A stretch of DNA of 32,000 nucleotides from Candidatus Brocadia sp. (GCA_021650915.1 CP091279.1:3600001-3632000), one strand, 5' to 3'; counted from the first letter of the stretch, positions 1,252-32,000 are shown. Made by a program: numbers and translations. The notes: generated by a model from the letters alone, not told the origin.

Positions 1252-1974
1252 TTATTTCAAGCGCAGGAATTTATTTTTTTTCAGATACCAGGCAGTAAAA
1301 AATGCAGTGGCAACAATCATAATCAAAATTAACAACGACCACAAGGTAGACTTGCTGGCCTCATAGCCTTGGTCTAAGTATATATCTTTCATGGTCAAAA
1401 GTAACAGCCCCGTTATCCATGCAAAGGGTGTAGCATATTCTTTGACAATCAATCGTTTCCAGTTAAATTCCATACCTTTTATGGTATTCCCTATTCCTGA
1501 AAAGTCAGGAATGATGCGGTTGACTCGTTTGCAATAATCTTTGAACACCTGACCAAACCTTTTTTCCAGGTAGGTCTCCTCTGCGCATATGATCGCTGCG
1601 TAGGCAAAGAAAAGAAACGGGATTCCAAACATAACAAAGAGGAGAGAATTTCCCGCAATCCCAACTCCAAGAAGAATCAAGATATTTCCAAAATAGAGGG
1701 GGTTTCTACAATGTGCAAAAATCCCTTCCTGAACAAGGGTTTCCGCATGCATCCGCTTCTTTTTGCCGCCTCGTTTAATGTAAGCAAACCCAACGGTGAG
1801 CGCCCGCAATATCTGACCGCTCAGTGCTATGGTAATACCAAGGATAATTTCCCATATTTCCGCGAGTTCGCTATTAAAAACCGGCCATGTCCCCTCAAAG
1901 AAAAGCAATGCAAAGACCAGGGGGAAAAGGGCATTCCGGTATCGGAAAAAGAAATTACCTATTTTAACCATCAT
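1252..1974 (-). CDS. Membrane methyltransferase of the isoprenylcysteine carboxyl methyltransferase / phospholipid methyltransferase (ICMT/PEMT) family
   Basis: This 240-aa protein is polytopic and hydrophobic. It carries the family motif LVQEGIFAHCRNPLYFGNILILLGVG (cf. G.Y...RHP.Y.G). Its start overlaps the cmoA stop (ATGA at 1971-1974). Confidence 0.75.
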   Translation of the reverse strand: MMVKIGNFFFRYRNALFPLVFALLFFEGTWPVFNSELAEIWEIILGITIALSGQILRALTVGFAYIKRGGKKKRMHAETLVQEGIFAHCRNPLYFGNILILLGVGIAGNSLLFVMFGIPFLFFAYAAIICAEETYLEKRFGQVFKDYCKRVNRIIPDFSGIGNTIKGMEFNWKRLIVKEYATPFAWITGLLLLTMKDIYLDQGYEASKSTLWSLLILIMIVATAFFTAWYLKKNKFLRLK

Positions 1975-2723
1975 TTTACCGCTACTATTCCACAGAAGTT
2001 ATACCACTTGAAAAACACATCACAATACCGGAATCCTTCCTTGAGCAGGAGTTCTCTGTTTTCCAGCAACTTGTAAGGAATTAATACGTTTTCAAGCGCC
2101 TCTCGTTTCTGTGCGATTTCTAATTCGCTGTACCCATTTCGTCGCTTGAAGTCGTAGTAGTACTTTATGAAGAGACGGTTAAAAATGGAGTCTTCCCCTA
2201 AGATTTTTTCCACAAGGATCAGGCATCCGTTCTCATTCAATCCCCGCAGGATATTGCCAATCAATTTGTCCCGATTTAAAGGCCTGATGAATTGAAGCGT
2301 AAGGAGCATAACCACAACAGAGGCATTCTCGATATTTACGCCTTGATTCAAATCGGCACAGATCAGTTCATGTTCCCTGGAAAAATGGTGCGCGTTGAGT
2401 TTCTGCTTACACTTGGCAAGCATGTCCGGTGAGTAATCGAGGCCAATGAATTTTACTTTACCAGGGATATTTTGGCCCATATTGAGCAGGGTAGTGCCCG
2501 TGGAACATCCGAGATCGTAAATATTTGTTCCTTCAACGGCAAAATCGACTGCCATTTCCACGATCATTTTTTGAGTTTCCCGATAGAACGGAACGGATCG
2601 GTCCAGCATGTCGTCAAATACCGAAGCGACTTTTTCTCCAAAGTTAAAATCCGCTATCGTGGTCATACTTTCCTTGAAAATTTCGTCCTTTGACATAGGT
2701 GAATACCTTGCTTCAGTTTTCAT
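1971..2723 (-). CDS. cmoA: Carboxy-S-adenosyl-L-methionine synthase (CmoA family)
   Basis: The protein resembles E. coli CmoA end to end, as recalled from memory. Matching blocks are FGEKVASVFDDMLDRSVPFYRE, IYDLGCSTGTT, ENASVVVMLLTLQF and DFKRRNGYSELEIAQKREALENV...YNFCGIVAVK. An alternative start lies at M10 (2696). Confidence 0.85.
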   Translation of the reverse strand: MKTEARYSPMSKDEIFKESMTTIADFNFGEKVASVFDDMLDRSVPFYRETQKMIVEMAVDFAVEGTNIYDLGCSTGTTLLNMGQNIPGKVKFIGLDYSPDMLAKCKQKLNAHHFSREHELICADLNQGVNIENASVVVMLLTLQFIRPLNRDKLIGNILRGLNENGCLILVEKILGEDSIFNRLFIKYYYDFKRRNGYSELEIAQKREALENVLIPYKLLENRELLLKEGFRYCDVFFKWYNFCGIVAVK

Positions 2724-9052: not shown

Positions 9053-10591
9053 TCAAGATTCTTCAGCGGATGAAGCGGCGGCGTTCTCCAGAATGGCGCT
9101 TACGAGACCGGGGATGGTGTATTCATCTGCCTTAATGGCGATATGGAGTCCCATCTCTTCAGCGGTCTGTGTCGTAATTGGGCCGATACTGGCATACTGG
9201 ACGTGGCTATTCAACGCCAGCAGGTTTTCCTTTCCGATGATCTCAACAAAATTCCGCACCGTTGACGAGCTGGTAAACGTAACGATATCGACCTCCCCGT
9301 TCCTGAGTTTATCAACGAGATTCATATTCCTGGGTTGCGCCATGATGGTCTTATATGCCACCAAATCAGTTACTTTCCCGCCCAATTTTTGTAGCTCATC
9401 GGGTAGAAAACTTCGTGCAATATCCGCCCGCGGCAGCAGGAATCTTTCGCCCTTTATCGTTGTCACCTTCTTCAACTCTTCTACCACGGATTCTGCAACA
9501 AATTTGGGTGGTCTGCAATTGACCCGCAGGTAATACTTCTTGATGCCGTCCTCCGTCGCCGGACCAATGGCACAGACCTTGAGGCCTTTCAGGTCACGGA
9601 TATCCTTTCCCAGCTCAAACAATCGCTGGAAGAAGGCATCGACACCGTTGATGCTGGTAAAGACCAGCCAATCGTAAGACTGGATGCTGTTTATCGCCGC
9701 ATCCAGCGGTTGAATGGTGTCGGGTTTTGCAATCTCTATGGTGGGAAATTCAATGACCCGCGCGCCATATTCGCAGAGCTTATCGGCAAATTCACTGGCC
9801 TGCTCCCTTGAACGGGTAACAACGATCGTCTTTCCGAACAATGGCTTAGACTCAAACCAGTTGAGCTGATCACGGAGTTTTACCACTTCGCCGACGATCG
9901 TAATTGCCGGCGGTTTTATCTCTCTGGTTTTTTCTACGATCGTACTCAGCGTTCCTATTACCGTTTTTTGCTGGGTCGTGGTTCCCCACCGGATAACAGC
10001 AACGGGTGTGTCTTTGGAACGGCCGTGTTTCATGAGTTGTTCTGTGATGTAAGGGAGATTTTTAATTCCCATATAAAAGGCAAGGGTGCCGATGCCGGTG
10101 CTGATCTTTGACCAATCAATGGAACTTTCGTCTTTTGTCGGATCTTCGTGTCCGGTGATCAGCCCAAAGGTCGAAGTAAAGTCACGATGGGTAACCGGAA
10201 TACCGGCATAACTGGGGGTTGCAATGGCAGCGGTAATGCCAGGAACGACCTCAAAAGGGATGTGGTTTTCATAAAGCACGATGGCCTCCTCCCCGCCACG
10301 TCCAAAGATATAAGGGTCGCCTCCCTTTAGCCGGGTTACGATTTTATCTTCCATGGCTTTTTTTACAATCAGGTTATTAATATCATCCTGTTCCATGGTA
10401 TGTGCGCCTCCCTGCTTTCCGACATAAATAAATTCTGCATCCGGCTTAGCAACTTTGAGGAGGTCTGCATTTACCAAATAATCGTAAATAATGACATCGG
10501 CTTTTTTAATACATTCCAGGCCTTTTACGGTGATAAGACGTGGGTCACCCGGACCAGCACCCACAAGGTATACCAGGTTGCGCTTCATCAA
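9053..10591 (-). CDS. cobA-hemD: Bifunctional uroporphyrinogen-III C-methyltransferase / uroporphyrinogen-III synthase (CobA-HemD fusion)
   Basis: The N-terminus VYLVGAGPGDPRLITVKGLECIKKADVIIYDYLV...RLKGGDPYIFGRGGEE is the SUMT signature. The C-terminal roughly 250 aa (GKTIVVTRSREQA...FTSINGVDAFF...FTSSSTVRNF) is HemD-like. Confidence 0.9.
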   Translation of the reverse strand: MMKRNLVYLVGAGPGDPRLITVKGLECIKKADVIIYDYLVNADLLKVAKPDAEFIYVGKQGGAHTMEQDDINNLIVKKAMEDKIVTRLKGGDPYIFGRGGEEAIVLYENHIPFEVVPGITAAIATPSYAGIPVTHRDFTSTFGLITGHEDPTKDESSIDWSKISTGIGTLAFYMGIKNLPYITEQLMKHGRSKDTPVAVIRWGTTTQQKTVIGTLSTIVEKTREIKPPAITIVGEVVKLRDQLNWFESKPLFGKTIVVTRSREQASEFADKLCEYGARVIEFPTIEIAKPDTIQPLDAAINSIQSYDWLVFTSINGVDAFFQRLFELGKDIRDLKGLKVCAIGPATEDGIKKYYLRVNCRPPKFVAESVVEELKKVTTIKGERFLLPRADIARSFLPDELQKLGGKVTDLVAYKTIMAQPRNMNLVDKLRNGEVDIVTFTSSSTVRNFVEIIGKENLLALNSHVQYASIGPITTQTAEEMGLHIAIKADEYTIPGLVSAILENAAASSAEES

Positions 10592-10799: not shown

Positions 10800-12719
10800 C
10801 TATGGTCTTTGTGAACGTCCTTGCTGATAGGCCAATTCGTCTTTTTTTGCCATAATTCGCTCCACGGCTTCAACTGCATTCTCCCGGACATCGGTATTTT
10901 TGTTCTTCACCAGTCCCTGGAGTGCAGCAAGTGCGTTTGGACTGCCAATTCTGCCCAGCGCCCATGCTGCAGAACTCACGACAGGGGGCTCTTTATCCTT
11001 CAATGCCCAGATGAGTGCCGTGACGGCGCTTTCATCGCCAATCCAACCAAGGGTTAGCGCGGTACGTTCTCGTGTTTCTTTGTGTATTTCATGCAATGAA
11101 CTTATCAGCGCCTTTACTGCGGGATGACCAATCTTTACCAGCGCCCATCCCGCCCTGCGTCTGGTACCTTCTTCTTTGTCGTTCAGGGCACTTATCAGCA
11201 GCGGAACAGCCCTTTGGCCTATTGCGGCTAATCCCCATGCAGCCTTTGTGCGCGCCCATGCCGCATCTTCTCCGGCGTCGGTAACCAGGATTTTAGCAAG
11301 GGCATTCATGGCGGAGTCGCTGCCGATCTTGCCCAGCGCTTCGACACAACCGCTTTTAACATGCCAGCTTTGTTCTTTTGCGAATACCTTCATGATTGGA
11401 AAAACTGAACCCCGGTCTCCGAGGGCCCCCAGAGTTCGGACAATGTCATACTCAACGTTCAGATCAGGTTCTTTTAATAAAACTTCGTGAAGCGCCGGAA
11501 CCGATTGTGCCGCGTTCAGTCTTTTCAGCGCGAGAACTGCTTCCCGCCTCACTGCCGTATTTATATCCTTCAGAAGGGGTTCTATGTTCGCGTACACACT
11601 GTCGTCACCGCAGAATCCGAGCGACCAGACGGCATGTTGTCGCACCTGCGGACTGCTGTCGCTGAGAAGCGTTACGAGGTGTGGTACCGTGCATCCCGGC
11701 GGCAACACCATTAACGCCATTGCAGCGGCCCGTGCCTTGTCATAATCTGCCCCCTCGATGGTTTTTATCAGGCCTTTTACTTGTTCCTGAAGGTGCGGGG
11801 CATGGTTGTCAGCGTCTTGCCGGGAACGGTTTGTTTCCCGGCCTTTTGGTCTCTTTTGGGCGCTTGTCTGGTTTGTGATGTTCAGAATATCCGTGGCAAC
11901 GCATGGATAATCAACCATGATGACGTCCACTCCTGCTTTGATCCGATTCTTTATAACCGTTCTGCTGTCATTTCCAAGGATGATCGAGAATGCATAGTTT
12001 TTTTCCTCATGGATAAGATCAATCTTTTCCTTTGTCGTTTCTTCTGCAGGCAAAAAAATCAGTTCTTTTCCTTCCGATTCTTCACCTGTCATGGTTACAT
12101 TTCTCATTGTTCCCCAGAAATATACCTGCGAAGACATTTCGCATTCCCCGACGACCTGCAGTACCTGCTCTTCCAAACAAGTCTGCCTTACATTCAGAAT
12201 CAGCTTGAGATCGTTTAATTTGCAAAACTTCAAGGCATCAGAGAGGAGAGGTACCCGTTCTTTCTGAAACTCACGGCTACGCCATGAACCAGCATCATAT
12301 TGTTGTATCTCAGCGTATACTAATTGATCGACACGCCCTTTTCCATCGGTCGTCCGGTCGATTGTTTCATCGCACATCAGGACAAGCTGATTGTCCTTGG
12401 TTTGTCTGATGTCAACGGCAATACCATCAATTCCCAACTCGGCAACCCGTCGTAATGCAGCAAAGGTATTTTCCGGGACGTCTTCAAGCACGCCGTGGTG
12501 CGCAAAGACCTCGACCTGTTTTGTGTCCGCGGCCAATGCGGAGTAATACGGAGGAAGCAGGAGGAATACCATAGCTGCGCAGAGTTGCAACCGCACCCCT
12601 CCAGGGCTCAGCGGAGTAAGCTTGGCCAAACAGAAAGGGAGAAGAAGAATGTTATAGAAAACGTGCATAAAAAAGAATTTTTTGTACAGGAATGTTCTCA
12701 TGATCAAAATATGACGCAT
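10800..12719 (-). CDS. Secreted glycerophosphodiester phosphodiesterase (GDPD) domain fused to about 9 HEAT (PBS-lyase type) repeats
   Basis: The N-terminus is hydrophobic. The GDPD block is VFAHHGVLEDVPENTFAALRRVAELGIDGIAVDIRQTKDNQLVLMCDETIDRTTDG. The C-terminal half carries repeated units ending in ALG.IG (for example VRQHAVWSLGFCGD, VEALGKIGS, AGWALVKIGH, AAWALGRIGS). Confidence 0.75.
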   Translation of the reverse strand: MRHILIMRTFLYKKFFFMHVFYNILLLPFCLAKLTPLSPGGVRLQLCAAMVFLLLPPYYSALAADTKQVEVFAHHGVLEDVPENTFAALRRVAELGIDGIAVDIRQTKDNQLVLMCDETIDRTTDGKGRVDQLVYAEIQQYDAGSWRSREFQKERVPLLSDALKFCKLNDLKLILNVRQTCLEEQVLQVVGECEMSSQVYFWGTMRNVTMTGEESEGKELIFLPAEETTKEKIDLIHEEKNYAFSIILGNDSRTVIKNRIKAGVDVIMVDYPCVATDILNITNQTSAQKRPKGRETNRSRQDADNHAPHLQEQVKGLIKTIEGADYDKARAAAMALMVLPPGCTVPHLVTLLSDSSPQVRQHAVWSLGFCGDDSVYANIEPLLKDINTAVRREAVLALKRLNAAQSVPALHEVLLKEPDLNVEYDIVRTLGALGDRGSVFPIMKVFAKEQSWHVKSGCVEALGKIGSDSAMNALAKILVTDAGEDAAWARTKAAWGLAAIGQRAVPLLISALNDKEEGTRRRAGWALVKIGHPAVKALISSLHEIHKETRERTALTLGWIGDESAVTALIWALKDKEPPVVSSAAWALGRIGSPNALAALQGLVKNKNTDVRENAVEAVERIMAKKDELAYQQGRSQRP

Positions 12720-26807: not shown

Positions 26808-28154
26808 TTACCGGAGTTTTATTTTCATCTTCCTTTGAAATTCTGCCTCTTCTCGGATCTTTGTTACCTCTTCTTTCATACCACTCAAATCTTCCTGGAG
26901 TTTTGCCCATCCGCAGAGGTGCGTATGGCCAGGGTTTCCATGGTAAGCCCCTTTCCACGCAACAGCGGCTCCCTGAGTTAATTGGATAAACAAGCGTTCT
27001 ATCCTGGGCTTGTTGGTGTACGACGGCAAGGCTTCCTGAACGAAGGCATGACCGGGCAAAAGCGTATTCATGGTTTTACCTATTGGCGGAGACAGCAGGT
27101 TTTCTCTTTCCAACCCCGTAACGATATCACGGGCATCCTTAATAACCGTCTCGATATTTTTATAGGTGTCATCAGCATCCAGTAAGGTCTTCTTTGCAAA
27201 AGACAGTGAGTGGCATATAGTGCAGACGGACAGCATGTCTGTCCGTTTCTTTGCGAATTCAACCTCATCTATGGCTGCGCCATTCCTGTCAATGTAAGGA
27301 AGCCCGCTTCCGGCAACCGGGCCATAGGTAAGTCCGAAGCTGAGATCATGAGTGCCCTGCGGCATGTGGCAGGTAACACAAACGGGCGACCTCAGGGAAG
27401 CGATGGTTCGCGATTCTTTTAGTATGCCAGCCTGACTTGCCGTATAGACACTTCCGTGTTTGGAGGAGATATACATCTCATAATGCGGGTTGTCCGGGCC
27501 CATGTGACACGTTCTGCATGCCTCCGGGGTTTTTGCCTCAAGGGTGTTAAAAGTATGTCGTGTGTGGCATGAATCACATTTGAATTGAATATTGTGACAC
27601 TGCGCACACTTTTCTGAACGAAGGTCTTTGGGAATTGACAGGAGGTTTCCGCACTCAAGCATTCTATCCCAGCTTATGGAGTGGCGACTCCGCATAAATT
27701 CCTGATGCTCCTTTTTATGGCATTTGCCACACATACTGGCAGTTACGTGACGACGGACCTTTTTGTCCTCGCACGTGCTTCCCTGCGTACCCAGATATTC
27801 CAATTCCGCCGTTTCCGTTGTTGCCAGTTCTGTGACAGAACCGACATGGCACACCTCACATCCCACGCCTTTTCTTGCATGTTTACTGCCCTCCCAATCC
27901 GCCACCCATCCATGCGTAACCCGGCGTTCTTCATGGCACGTTATACATTTCAGGGATTCTTCCGTAATTCCCCTTTCTTTTTTGGTAATGGACACAACCG
28001 CTTCCGTTTTGCCAGGAATCGGCGTAGCCGCTTCTTCAGGAGGCGGGATAATCGTTTTTTGCGGGATATTGGTTGTTTCTTTTTGAGTAGCACAACCGGC
28101 AAGCAAAGCCAGTCCGGTAAGAATAACTACGATGGTAACATATTTCAGAGGCAT
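26808..28154 (-). CDS. Octaheme cytochrome c of the hydroxylamine-oxidoreductase (HAO-like) family, with a lipoprotein-type signal peptide
   Basis: There are eight CxxCH motifs: CITCH, CEVCH, CGKCH, CAQCH, CDSCH, CRTCH, CVTCH and CTICH. HAO-like context blocks are WEGSKHARKGVGCEVCH, CDSCHTRHTFNTLEAKTPEACRTCHMGPDNPHYEMYISSKHG and VCTICHSLSFA. I place the start at MPLKYVTIVVILTGLALLAGC (28154), preceded by aaggaga. Confidence 0.8.
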   Translation of the reverse strand: MPLKYVTIVVILTGLALLAGCATQKETTNIPQKTIIPPPEEAATPIPGKTEAVVSITKKERGITEESLKCITCHEERRVTHGWVADWEGSKHARKGVGCEVCHVGSVTELATTETAELEYLGTQGSTCEDKKVRRHVTASMCGKCHKKEHQEFMRSRHSISWDRMLECGNLLSIPKDLRSEKCAQCHNIQFKCDSCHTRHTFNTLEAKTPEACRTCHMGPDNPHYEMYISSKHGSVYTASQAGILKESRTIASLRSPVCVTCHMPQGTHDLSFGLTYGPVAGSGLPYIDRNGAAIDEVEFAKKRTDMLSVCTICHSLSFAKKTLLDADDTYKNIETVIKDARDIVTGLERENLLSPPIGKTMNTLLPGHAFVQEALPSYTNKPRIERLFIQLTQGAAVAWKGAYHGNPGHTHLCGWAKLQEDLSGMKEEVTKIREEAEFQRKMKIKLR

Positions 28155-28231
28155 GGTATCTCCTTTGGCAGAAACAGGCATATAGATGTCAGGCACAGGA
28201 ACCCAGTAGCGTTCCATAAATGCTGAATAAG

Positions 28232-28699
28232 CTAATAAGTCCTCTTGTCCGCTCGTTGATTCCAAAAGTCAAAGAGCGCTAAATTTTCGTTCCGAAGGCA
28301 ATCTGAAACGATTGCCACAGGGCTGTTGCCAAATTGTTTCATTTCTCTATTCGAAATGGTAAGTTCGCTGAATCCTAACGTTTTTGCGTCATCAATTCGT
28401 GCGCCATAAACAATCTTTGAAATGCCTGCCCAGTGGCAGGCGCTGAAGCACATGGGACAAGGTTCACAGGTAGCGTACATCACACAGCCAGACAGGTCAA
28501 CGGTATTCAATTGCTTACAGGCCTCTCTGATCGCGTGAATTTCAGCATGGGCGGTGATATCCAGCCTTTCCCAAACGATGTTATGGACACAGCACACGAC
28601 TTCTCCGTCTTTTGCTATGCATGCCCCAAAAGGCGTTTGTCCCTTTTCAATACCTTGTTTTGCTTTGGCTATGGCAAGCCTCATAAATTTTTCATCCAT
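28232..28699 (-). CDS. CDA-fold nucleoside/base deaminase, GuaD-like (guanine deaminase type) rather than clearly TadA
   Basis: Zinc motifs are TAHAEIHAIREA and TCEPCPMCFSACHWAGISKIVYG. The tail ARIDDAKTLGFSEL resembles B. subtilis GuaD (AEHTDAAEAGFDD). Confidence 0.8.
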   Translation of the reverse strand: MDEKFMRLAIAKAKQGIEKGQTPFGACIAKDGEVVCCVHNIVWERLDITAHAEIHAIREACKQLNTVDLSGCVMYATCEPCPMCFSACHWAGISKIVYGARIDDAKTLGFSELTISNREMKQFGNSPVAIVSDCLRNENLALFDFWNQRADKRTY

Positions 28700-29597: not shown

Positions 29598-30692
29598 TTA
29601 ACTGGCCCTGAGCAGAAAGGCATGCGCGCAGAGTCCTGCGCCAAAGGCCACCATGACGCACCAGTCCCCCGGTTGAACACCGTGGTTATCTAAAATCTCA
29701 CGCAGCACAAAAAATACGGTAGGCGAAGACATATTTCCAAATTTTGCCAGGACCGAACGCGTTGCCTGGAGTTGTCCTTCGGGAAGACCGATTTCATCTC
29801 TGATGGCATTGATTACCCTTTCGCCTCCCGGATGAAAGGCCCAATGTTGAATGTCTTTTGGAGCTAATCCCCTCGGTTTTAAAAGGTCAGTTATAACCCT
29901 TGTCACTGCTTTACCAGCCAATTCGGGGAGAGAAACGGAAAGCTGGTTGCGGAGTTGTCCATTTTTATATATATAGCGGATATCATCACGGGATTCAGGT
30001 TTATAGTAACTGGCTGAGGCAATCAGCTCCAGTCCTTCAGAACGACGCCAAAGGACGGATGCAGAAGCGCCGTCGGCAAAGAGTGCATTTGAAATGATCA
30101 AACTCAAATCGTCCGCCATCTGATAGGTGGCGCTGCAGATCTCTACGGAAACACCCACGATCACCCCGTTATCAGAACTTTTTGCCATATCCTCGCAGAT
30201 TTGCAGGTTGGGAATTCCTCCCCCACACCCGCTGCCAACCAGGTCATGGGCGCGTGTCTTGTCCGACATGCGGAGTTTTTCTATGAGATAGGTAGAGATG
30301 CCGGGACAAATATATCCGGTGCAGGTATTCACCACCAATCCCGATACATCGTCCGGGGTCAATCCAACGGGGGTCAATGCCTTCAGGATTGCCTGAGATG
30401 AAAGGTCTACCGCCCAGCGTGTAAAGCGTGCGATACGGTTATCCGGATGCTCGTGAATAAGACCCTTGAGGTCGTCCAGCGCAAGGTGTCTGTGCACTAC
30501 GCTCGGATGGGCAAAAATCTTCCGCAGTATTGCCAGATTCTTTTTGCTCAGTTTGTCTGCATAGGCTCTTACCAGAAATTCCTCAGCATGGGCCTGGCTT
30601 ACCCTGTAGGGGGGGGTAGTAACTGCTACCGATCCCATACAAATCTTTTGTGAAGGAGGTATGGGTAACCTTTTATCATTATTCGCCATCAT
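29598..30692 (-). CDS. Type III polyketide synthase (chalcone/stilbene synthase superfamily)
   Basis: The Cys-His-Asn triad contexts are VVNTCTGYICPG, WAFHPGGERVI and FGNMSSPTVFFVL. The 364-aa size is typical. The start ATG overlaps the rSAM stop (ATGA at 30689-30692). Confidence 0.9.
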   Translation of the reverse strand: MMANNDKRLPIPPSQKICMGSVAVTTPPYRVSQAHAEEFLVRAYADKLSKKNLAILRKIFAHPSVVHRHLALDDLKGLIHEHPDNRIARFTRWAVDLSSQAILKALTPVGLTPDDVSGLVVNTCTGYICPGISTYLIEKLRMSDKTRAHDLVGSGCGGGIPNLQICEDMAKSSDNGVIVGVSVEICSATYQMADDLSLIISNALFADGASASVLWRRSEGLELIASASYYKPESRDDIRYIYKNGQLRNQLSVSLPELAGKAVTRVITDLLKPRGLAPKDIQHWAFHPGGERVINAIRDEIGLPEGQLQATRSVLAKFGNMSSPTVFFVLREILDNHGVQPGDWCVMVAFGAGLCAHAFLLRAS

Positions 30693-32000
30693 ACGTCCAT
30701 TCCAAAAAGCCTGAGTCCGCGCCGGATAAAACGAGTGTATCGCCAGAGGGGGGACCTGACTCCTGCCCTGTATCCCAGGCGATTCAAGGCCGGAAGAAAC
30801 GAAAGGCCAAGGGTATTGGAGTCAATATAATTTAGGTGTGTACCCAGCGCCTTTCGCAGGGTATTGATTAACCAATCCAGATCCAGGCCGGGAGAAAGGT
30901 AAAACACGGGTTCCAGCATTTCCCGGGAAGGAAGCGCCAAAACACCTTCTTTACGAGCCCGCTGCTCAAGTTCAGTGCCAGGATAGATGCGTATTCCTAT
31001 ATTGAAAAATACCACGTCTTTCGGACGTATGAATTGCTCTGCAAAATGCAACGTTTCCTGAACGGTATCTTGTGTTTCGCATGGCCCTCCCAGCATGAAG
31101 ATCCAGAGGCAAGGTATATTGTGATGTTGAACGACCCGGGCTGCATGGTAGACGTGTTCTACGGTAAAACCTTTTTGGAGACCGTCCAGGACAACACCAG
31201 ATGCGCTTTCAACCGTAATACCCATACCAACGAAACCAGCCTCCTCCATTGCGGTAAGGAGGTCATCGTCTATGAAAAGCGGGTTTAATTCCAGGCTCTG
31301 GAGACGAACATCAGGTCTGGCTCTGGCAAGGCCATTACAGATGGCCAATGCATGATCATAGGGGGAATTAAATACATTGTCAACAAATTCAATGTCCCTG
31401 AATCCCTTCCCGGCAAGACGCTCAATCGTATCGACGACCACGGCGGGATTACAGAAACGATAGTCGTATCCTTCAATCTTCCGGTAGGTGCAGTAGACGC
31501 ATTTGAAGTGGCATCCGAGTTTTGTTTGAATGGGCACCGTCGACAACCTGGACAGGTAGGCATGCGTATCAATCCATCGGTGGAAACCGGGAACCAGACA
31601 GCCATCGGAAAAACGGGTTACATAACCGGTATTTTTCCTGAAGATACCATCATCCAACCATGCAACACCAGGAATTTGGTTCGGGAACTCACCTTGGGAA
31701 AGCGAAGCTGCCAATTGAGGAAAAACAACTTCCCCGTCTCCCAGGATTGCCCAGTCTGCCCCCGTATAACGAAGCAATTCTTCAGGCATGATGGCAACTG
31801 CAGCGCCGCCAAGAACAAGGGCAGATCGCGTCTTGCTGCGGATGGTTTTCGCCAGTGGCTTCAAATCCCGAAAGAAAGCCACGGGATTTTGCATATCATT
31901 ATTGTCGATGTTTCGTACAGAAAGACCGACAATGTCAGGATTGAATTTGACAAGTTCAGACTCCAGGGACGATACCGGGTCTTTCACAAACATCAAATCC
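30689..32000 (-). CDS. B12-binding-domain radical SAM enzyme (class B), with the N-terminus outside the window
   Basis: The ORF is open to the window edge. It has a B12-binding-like region (DIVGLSVRNIDN...LVLGGAAVAIMPEELL...AILGDGE) and the radical SAM cluster motif GCHFKCVYCTY. Confidence 0.85.
   Translation of the reverse strand, partial: DLMFVKDPVSSLESELVKFNPDIVGLSVRNIDNNDMQNPVAFFRDLKPLAKTIRSKTRSALVLGGAAVAIMPEELLRYTGADWAILGDGEVVFPQLAASLSQGEFPNQIPGVAWLDDGIFRKNTGYVTRFSDGCLVPGFHRWIDTHAYLSRLSTVPIQTKLGCHFKCVYCTYRKIEGYDYRFCNPAVVVDTIERLAGKGFRDIEFVDNVFNSPYDHALAICNGLARARPDVRLQSLELNPLFIDDDLLTAMEEAGFVGMGITVESASGVVLDGLQKGFTVEHVYHAARVVQHHNIPCLWIFMLGGPCETQDTVQETLHFAEQFIRPKDVVFFNIGIRIYPGTELEQRARKEGVLALPSREMLEPVFYLSPGLDLDWLINTLRKALGTHLNYIDSNTLGLSFLPALNRLGYRAGVRSPLWRYTRFIRRGLRLFGMDV

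Follow-up and report, generated by a model that had tools for sequence, protein, structure and literature searches.

The closest described systems to the locus treated here are short operons in which tailoring genes are attached to a bacterial type III polyketide synthase (PKS). In planctomycetes, 58 of 96 type III PKS genes lie in operons with a methyltransferase and a flavin adenine dinucleotide (FAD)-dependent oxidoreductase (PMC10896814). Both this planctomycetal operon and HidABC, the hierridin system of picocyanobacteria, gave rise to pentadecyl- and heptadecyl-resorcinols on heterologous expression, and the methyltransferase of G. maris probably C-methylates the ring (PMC10896814). In SrsABC of Streptomyces griseus and in the polyketide quinone pathways of mycobacteria and Streptomyces, a type III PKS works together with methylation and hydroxylation of the ring, and the resulting methylated alkylresorcinols and alkylquinones can act as membrane electron carriers (PMC9927152, PMC5916927). 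Here, we analyse a stretch of 32,000 nucleotides (nt) from Candidatus Brocadia sp. (GCA_021650915.1 CP091279.1:3600001-3632000; the window), in which a type III PKS gene is joined by a stop/start overlap to the gene of a cobalamin (B12)-dependent radical S-adenosylmethionine (SAM) enzyme (rSAM). A sequence-only reading of this DNA had stated that the usual partners of bacterial type III PKSs are SAM methyltransferases or flavoenzymes, which the planctomycetal counts bear out, and had not recognized the present pairing as a described pathway. Our literature search agrees, as it found no description of a type III PKS or of alkylresorcinols linked to a B12-dependent rSAM; a search for type III PKSs together with U32 proteins returned irrelevant papers only. 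The operon type is familiar, and the tailoring enzyme is new and widely conserved.

On the reading that we favour, the PKS would extend a starter unit, which is probably a fatty acyl thioester, by condensation with malonyl units and close the chain into a phenolic lipid of the resorcinol or pyrone type. The rSAM would then tailor this product without O2, most likely by moving the methyl group of methylcobalamin onto a carbon atom of the electron-rich ring. In this way, it would provide the ring C-methyl group for which aerobic relatives rely on a class I methyltransferase or on methylmalonyl-CoA, the latter being the source in the case of SrsA. The module would be a version, found in anaerobes, of the hidABC, srsABC and planctomycetal alkylresorcinol operons, in which the rSAM acts as cobalamin-dependent C-methylase. 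Our confidence in this reading is about even because both the product, with its starter unit and ring type, and the rSAM reaction, with methylation and its site, are inferred. The sequence-only reading had pointed the same way, to a radical- or B12-tailored, probably C-methylated phenolic lipid.

The likeness to hidABC and the planctomycetal operon is one of gene composition. The same set of components occurs with the present PKS clade in three loci from Nitrospinota (L054, L076 and L082), and it is these partners, shared within the clade, that suggest an alkylresorcinol product; the ring C-methylation ascribed to the G. maris methyltransferase is the reaction proposed here for the rSAM. The differences are that the window and all anammox loci lack the class I methyltransferase and the FAD oxidoreductase, the B12-dependent rSAM being the only conserved partner, and that the rSAM precedes the PKS in the pair, whereas the PKS comes first in Nitrospinota. 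Compared with SrsABC and the polyketide quinones, a WrbA quinone reductase and a cupredoxin that neighbour the pair fit a redox-active product. Those pathways employ O2-dependent flavoprotein hydroxylases, in contrast to the B12-dependent rSAM, accompanied in some phyla by a U32 protein, of the anaerobes considered here, and no hydroxylase candidate lies near the pair in the anammox loci.

The gene pair and its conservation

The features of the pair are as follows (window coordinates).

29598..30692, minus strand: type III PKS, complete coding sequence of 364 amino acids (open reading frame [ORF], Pfam and fold)
30689..32000, minus strand: cobalamin-dependent (class B) rSAM, residues 40-475 and stop codon within the window
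30689..30692, minus strand: ATGA stop/start overlap of the rSAM and PKS genes (sequence read, codons verified)
31490..31513, minus strand: CxxxCxxC [4Fe-4S] motif of the rSAM, CHFKCVYC (C202, C206, C209), invariant in the rSAM alignment
31895..31915, minus strand: RNIDNND motif in the B12-binding domain, with R68 equivalent to TsrM R69 (invariant in the rSAM alignment; phmmer to TsrM, 6wte)
31709..32000, minus strand: B12-binding Rossmann domain, C-terminal two thirds (PF02310, window residues 10-96)
30225..30227, minus strand: codon of catalytic Cys156 of the PKS, motif DLVGSGCGG (invariant in the alignment; aligns with the active-site Cys of PKS11)
29832..29834, minus strand: codon of catalytic His287, motif WAFHPGG (invariant in the alignment, codon checked)
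29733..29735, minus strand: codon of catalytic Asn320, motif FGNMSS (invariant in the alignment, codon checked)
30306..30332, minus strand: clade-specific invariant motif VNTCTGYICPG (V121 to G131) of the PKS, with two extra Cys, 124 and 129

Since both genes are read from right to left, position 29598, where the sequence-only reading began this region, is the stop end of the PKS gene. That reading had named both minus-strand genes, the cluster motif and B12-binding domain of the rSAM, the Cys/His/Asn triad of the PKS and the ATGA coupling, and had taken the organism to be anammox-like; all of this holds. The PKS matches Chal_sti_synt_C at 74.3 bits and Chal_sti_synt_N at 39.6 bits (cut-off 27 for both) as well as FAE1_CUT1_RppA at 55.8 bits, and the rSAM product, although truncated, exceeds the Pfam gathering scores of both Radical_SAM (PF04055; 56.5 bits) and B12-binding (PF02310; 42.4 bits, cut-off 32.1). 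The rSAM gene crosses the window edge at 32000, leaving the first ~40 residues outside. It was completed from exact-match contigs carrying the complete operon (L001), which encode a protein of 475 amino acids with a GTG start (L001:1211-2638) and the full B12-binding domain. Both window proteins fall in 90%-identity clusters with proteins of Ca. Brocadia fulgida (BROFUL_02979 and BROFUL_02980).

At the junction (GTA TGA overlapping ATG ATG GCG), the rSAM stop codon TGA occupies 30689-30691 and the PKS start codon ATG 30690-30692, such that the four bases ATGA are common to both genes. The PKS could instead start at Met19 (30636-30638), in which case a 51-nt gap would replace the overlap: the family alignment shows little conservation of residues 1-17, and the confidence of their AlphaFold2 (AF2) model is low. 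Recurrence of a 4-nt stop/start overlap in at least 12 homologous loci speaks against this caveat. The inferred gap between the two genes is no more than 10 nt in 32 of 67 homologous loci.

Conservation was examined in one genome per species, with relatives of the PKS chosen by the motifs VVNTCTGY and [HY]DLVGSGCG. Relatives with these clade motifs occur in 343 species-representative genomes, and the best 80 of the 343 loci (PKS identities down to 56%) were analysed, the rSAM being placed by tblastn and ORF analysis. In 73 of the 80 loci, the gene next upstream of the PKS, with the same orientation, encodes an rSAM orthologue (52-86% identical); only 78 loci have upstream DNA (L020 and L072 have none). 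Of the remainder, L086 carries a 36%-identical rSAM paralogue 1.9 kb upstream of the PKS, and L018, L054, L076 and L082 have the PKS without an rSAM. About half of the 80 loci derive from anammox lineages (Brocadiaceae, Scalinduaceae and others); the others are mostly from Nitrospirota/Thermodesulfovibrionales, with further loci from Nitrospinota, Geobacteraceae, Desulfuromonadaceae and others. Over 67 loci, the identity of the rSAM to its window counterpart correlates with that of the PKS to its own (r = 0.92), and these two genes are the only universal ones when all ORFs of the 80 loci are clustered. With the rSAM upstream in 73 of 80 loci and such co-divergence, the adjacency is not confined to this genome, a restriction that the sequence-only reading had allowed for. 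Judged by this comparison, the two genes behave as one co-inherited biosynthetic unit.

The same data bear on the suggestion that the adjacency is without functional meaning and that two unrelated genes simply overlap. Promoter and terminator scans yielded no informative sites: predicted promoters in the operon were no more numerous than the shuffled expectation, terminator-like sites were modestly commoner, and neither kind delimits a transcription unit. This leaves room for chance, but the order and strand are kept in 73 of 78 evaluable loci from several phyla, and stop/start overlaps recur along with the co-divergence. We give a chance arrangement next to no credence; to the extent that comparative genomics can decide the matter, the synteny data refute it.

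Four of the loci are of separate note. In an anammox-like groundwater contig, a lone PKS gene (L018:7998-9050; 72% identical) lies between a LOG-family gene and a gene for a 476-amino-acid protein without family match, and no rSAM was detected across this 14.3-kb locus. The metagenome-assembled genome of Ca. Subterrananammoxibius californiae holds two PKS copies, 73% and 67% identical to the window PKS (L019 and L020), one with the rSAM upstream and the other at a contig edge. In Ca. Brocadia sp. DTUAMX2, an ORF of 615 amino acids (L062:6870-8717) joins rSAM residues 1-380 in frame with PKS residues 127-364, which is either a ~660-nt deletion (a pseudogene) or an assembly artefact.

Relatives of the two enzymes

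The AF2 model of the PKS (predicted local distance difference test [pLDDT] 82) is similar to PKS11, CylI, CHS and others in Foldseek at template modelling (TM) scores of 0.79-0.83, which supports a thiolase-type fold. Its best PDB match is M. tuberculosis PKS11 (TM 0.83, 29% identity), an alkylpyrone synthase primed by long-chain acyl groups, and the alkylresorcinol synthase CylI is likewise at TM 0.83. None of the catalytic residues C156, H287 and N320 varies among 12 aligned sequences, and all three match the PKS11 triad. There are 1653 relatives at E ≤ 1e-10, all with generic names only, and the best of these are from Brocadia, Jettenia, Kuenenia, Scalindua and Nitrospirota. The PKS represents a distinct clade, whose product is not readable from its sequence.

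The rSAM is most similar in structure to TsrM, the tryptophan C2-methyltransferase (PDB 6wte/6wtf). The AF2 model (pLDDT 82.7) matches TsrM at E 9e-28 and TM 0.80, with an E-value 11 orders of magnitude better than that of the next PDB entry; MgmA, OxsB, AprD4 and CysS reach E ~1e-16 and TM 0.61-0.67. Both proteins have an N-terminal B12-binding Rossmann domain followed by the radical SAM barrel, and R68 of the rSAM, invariant in 18 sequences, aligns with the lower-axial Arg69 of TsrM. In TsrM, R69 sits under the cobalamin and is linked to non-radical methyl transfer, and the radical methylases have a hydrophobic residue at this position (PMC12931638). The differences are also considerable: identity is 22-24%, and the rSAM is about 100 residues shorter with a different C-terminus. 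The C-terminus (window 30695-30760, residues ~453-475) forms a conserved, strongly basic tail, PLWRxTRxIRRGLRxxGMD, which is not found in TsrM and may be a membrane- or partner-binding element.

Among NCBIfam models, the full-length rSAM scores best with TIGR04072 (320.4 bits, cut-off 360), followed by BzaD TIGR04385 (171.4 bits, cut-off 450) and TsrM TIGR04428 (117.3 bits, cut-off 500). The last two scores are far under the family cut-offs, and the genomic partner of the rSAM is a PKS rather than a thiopeptide or B12 lower-ligand pathway. Yet BzaD and TsrM are the closest characterized families, which supports the methylase reading, and both are described as Csp2 (aromatic) C-methylases, although for BzaD this activity is still a prediction (PMC12931638). 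The general statement in the sequence-only reading that class B rSAMs methylate or rearrange unactivated carbons is too narrow here, given that these closest characterized relatives act on aromatic sp2 carbons. As to TIGR04072, membership is rejected on the score. Representatives of the rSAM at 31-49% identity obtain 276-343 bits with this model, and P0464, a true member, obtains 370 bits and is 31% identical to the window rSAM. Because the score lies below the cut-off and the true member is merely 31% identical, the rSAM is a separate subfamily within a large uncharacterized superfamily. Among 150 rSAM representatives, no Rosetta-stone fusion of rSAM and PKS was found. In four at 33-34% identity (P0432, P0440, P0417 and P0520), the fusion partner is a FeeM N-acyl amino acid synthase domain, a UbiE-like methyltransferase or a redoxin, which hints that the wider superfamily may work on lipids and together with class I methyltransferases.

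TIGR04072 ('lipid biosynthesis B12-binding/radical SAM protein') is named after the ladderane fatty-acid cluster, the B12-dependent rSAM of which is Kuste2803 (PMC2649909). The rSAM shares the architecture of this family and occurs in the same organisms, and some Nitrospirota loci also place an acyl carrier protein (ACP) and FabF beside it; in Brocadia, by contrast, it lies between WrbA and the PKS and not in the ACP/FabF/FabZ ladderane cluster. Kuste2803, which presumably seeded the model, is a proposed ladderane cyclase. With ladderane synthesis unsolved, the nearest subfamily to TIGR04072 at hand and the pair present in all anammox families sampled, a contribution to ladderanes, e.g. building or cyclizing the ring-bearing moiety, comes to mind, and the sequence-only reading had found this an attractive context. 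We nevertheless consider it very improbable. About half of the 80 loci belong to Nitrospirota, Nitrospinota, Geobacteraceae and others not known to make ladderanes, the rSAM is distant from the true TIGR04072 member, and at least one contig of anammox type, L018, carries the PKS but no rSAM. No record of K. stuttgartiensis is found among the best 80 of the 343 loci, and Rattray et al. described no PKS-like gene in this ladderane producer (PMC2649909), which appears to lack the pair.

Neighbouring genes and the tailoring reaction

The sequence-only reading had expected that additional partners might lie beyond the window edge. Upstream of the rSAM, the extended contig shows a gene for a WrbA-type NAD(P)H:quinone oxidoreductase (204 amino acids, 78 bases upstream; NF002999, 205 bits), preceded by an ORF of 116 amino acids without family match, and no further biosynthetic genes. 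The operon is therefore essentially WrbA-rSAM-PKS, and the rSAM-PKS unit is probably transcribed together with wrbA. WrbA is upstream in 16 Brocadia-type loci among the 80, including that of the window, and hints at a redox-active product. No class I SAM methyltransferase is present within the WrbA-rSAM-PKS unit or downstream of it, and no FAD-dependent oxidoreductase in this operon or in any anammox locus examined.

The loci that carry the same PKS clade with other partners are listed below.

L054:1777-5518, L076:7535-11135, L082:929-4567: Nitrospinota PKS/methyltransferase/FAD monooxygenase loci
L050:2772-9044, L064:3030-9038, L070:3824-9038, L080:3418-9038, L086:4542-9038, L087:4577-10323: loci containing a U32-family protein

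The three Nitrospinota-type loci lack the rSAM and have the order cupredoxin, PKS, UbiE-like methyltransferase (PRK06202-type) and FAD_binding_3 monooxygenase of the UbiH/geranylgeranyl-reductase type. Their PKSs are 60-63% identical to the window PKS and have the same motifs, and the FAD monooxygenase is present in these three loci only. This is an aerobic, hid-like arrangement, and the occurrence of the same PKS clade in it supports the alkylresorcinol reading. In four Nitrospirota loci (L050, L064, L070 and L080), the same UbiE-like methyltransferase, a U32-family protein and ACP and/or FabF are followed by the rSAM and the PKS (the L080 methyltransferase was seen in ORF clustering, not in the gene map). 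The order is rSAM-methyltransferase-U32-PKS in L086 (Desulfuromonadaceae), where the rSAM is the TIGR04072-like paralogue, and rSAM-hypothetical-methyltransferase-U32-PKS in L087, a Geomonas contig with a second rSAM. Altogether, the UbiE-like methyltransferase is present in L054, L076, L082, L050, L064, L070, L086 and L087.

The U32 protein (UbiU/UbiV-like, ~410 amino acids, with many invariant Cys) occupies the place of the FAD monooxygenase in the Nitrospirota, Geomonas and Desulfuromonadaceae loci. UbiU and UbiV are U32 proteins that act as O2-independent ring hydroxylases in ubiquinone synthesis (PMC6747719, PMC10990095). Since they hydroxylate rings without O2, the set of methyltransferase, U32 protein, in some cases ACP and FabF, rSAM and PKS looks by analogy like an O2-independent counterpart of the methyltransferase/FAD-oxidoreductase/PKS operons, the flavoenzyme being exchanged, in these sister lineages, for a candidate hydroxylase that needs no O2. 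A U32 search gave no anammox label among its 120 best matches, most of which carry no label. One speculative possibility, to which we attach low probability, is an O2-independent pathway to polyketide (alkyl-benzo)quinols centred on the rSAM-PKS pair. In strict anaerobes, anammox bacteria included, the quinols would function as redox carriers of the membrane or as antioxidants, and other phyla would add a U32 hydroxylase and a UbiE-like methyltransferase. Such a pathway would parallel, in anaerobes, the polyketide quinones of mycobacteria and Streptomyces, and the ring step of the rSAM, be it C-methylation or anaerobic oxidation, would be unprecedented in type III polyketide chemistry.

The distribution of the FAD monooxygenase also raises the question of whether the rSAM methylates at all. 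It is missing from exactly the three Nitrospinota loci with this enzyme and present in the loci of anaerobes, and it could stand in for the monooxygenase, as BchE does for AcsF, by an O2-independent oxidation or rearrangement (hydroxylation, quinol formation, cyclization or C-C coupling). Non-methylating chemistry is described for class B rSAMs such as BchE, OxsB and AprD4-like enzymes (PMC13598231), and the anammox loci have no other nearby tailoring gene, yet a WrbA quinone reductase adjoins. Several anaerobe loci, however, carry the U32 candidate hydroxylase in addition to the rSAM, which itself scores only 62 bits each with BchE and AprD4 versus 171 with BzaD and 117 with TsrM, and OxsB and AprD4 fit its model at TM about 0.63-0.67 versus 0.80 for TsrM. 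We consider a non-methylating role rather improbable.

Several points weigh against ring C-methylation and the phenolic lipid product that we favour. The Glu273 cluster ligand of TsrM is replaced by Val248 in the rSAM, and Glu236, located between the cluster and the cobalamin, by Tyr211, both invariant. Without these residues, the rSAM may bind SAM on the cluster and use 5'-deoxyadenosyl radical chemistry on an sp3 carbon; its cobalamin side looks TsrM-like and its cluster side able to bind SAM, as far as aligned residues can tell. The nearest family by hidden Markov model is the lipid-cluster enzyme TIGR04072, and ACP and FabF directly upstream of the rSAM in the four Nitrospirota loci fit action on an acyl chain. 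These points could mean that the rSAM works on the aliphatic part. Through the 5'-deoxyadenosyl radical and methylcobalamin, as is classic for class B enzymes, it would methylate an unactivated sp3 carbon, or change it in some other way, either in the fatty acyl starter (bound to ACP or CoA) or in the alkyl tail of the product, and the PKS would then use the branched chain or already have produced it. The Tyr after the cluster motif, as in radical methylases, and the fusion of distant relatives to FeeM, a lipid enzyme, are in line with this. On the other hand, aromatic C-methylases provide both the top-scoring characterized relatives and the sole close structural match, the family never departs from the TsrM-type lower-axial Arg, in place of which radical methylases have a hydrophobic residue (PMC12931638), and ACP and FabF, confined to some Nitrospirota loci, are absent from the anammox loci. 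Action on the aliphatic part is, in our view, unlikely but deserves to be kept in mind.

Further points concern ring C-methylation as a replacement for the class I enzyme and the identity of the product. Where the class I methyltransferase occurs, the rSAM usually occurs too, and the rSAM is therefore an addition and not a simple replacement. With at most ~30% identity between the PKS and any solved type III PKS, ring type and starter cannot be predicted from sequence. WrbA could be a flavodoxin-like electron donor for the rSAM or reflect merely local synteny. We know of no report of alkylresorcinols from anammox lipid surveys, and the activities assigned to both enzymes are predicted ones.

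A small cupredoxin-like gene, the product of which is secreted or lipoprotein-like, adjoins the module in 19 loci from four lineages, with a CuA-like Cx3Cx3Hx2M motif in the Brocadia-type protein; it is absent from the window's own genome. Examples are as follows.

L033:5936-6316, L008:6187-6558, L025:1746-2162, L076:7535-7969, L084:5593-6012: cupredoxin-like genes

Downstream of the PKS, a hypothetical membrane protein of 201 amino acids was discarded as a partner, being conserved in one close Brocadia locus only, and the dCMP deaminase, multihaem cytochrome, VanZ, NYN and other genes are unrelated to the pair. The multihaem cytochrome (window 26808-28265, minus strand, two genes downstream of the PKS; PF13447, 100.8 bits) is of the hydroxylamine oxidoreductase (HAO)/seven-haem type and fits an anammox genome. 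A methyltransferase gene at window 1971-2723 was considered as the missing hid-type methyltransferase and rejected for lack of similarity. Elsewhere in the window, the minus strand encodes a fused uroporphyrinogen-III methylase/HemD protein (9053-10591; TP_methylase and HEM4) and a 639-amino-acid protein with a glycerophosphodiester phosphodiesterase domain and many HEAT repeats (10800-12719).

Implications for type III PKS tailoring in anaerobes

To our knowledge, tailoring in all known type III PKS operons for phenolic lipids is either O2-dependent or of the ordinary SAM-dependent kind. A cobalamin-dependent rSAM partner conserved in hundreds of species of anaerobes would be a new tailoring logic for type III PKSs, and the pairing would give a defined substrate to a large uncharacterized rSAM subfamily. 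The carriers, among them anammox bacteria, Thermodesulfovibrionales and Geobacteraceae, matter in the environment and are difficult to grow in culture, and the predicted new lipid or quinone is directly testable in them. Finally, as this rSAM subfamily is nearest to the family named for the ladderane cluster, its characterization would provide a tractable model for the still-unexpressed ladderane enzyme.

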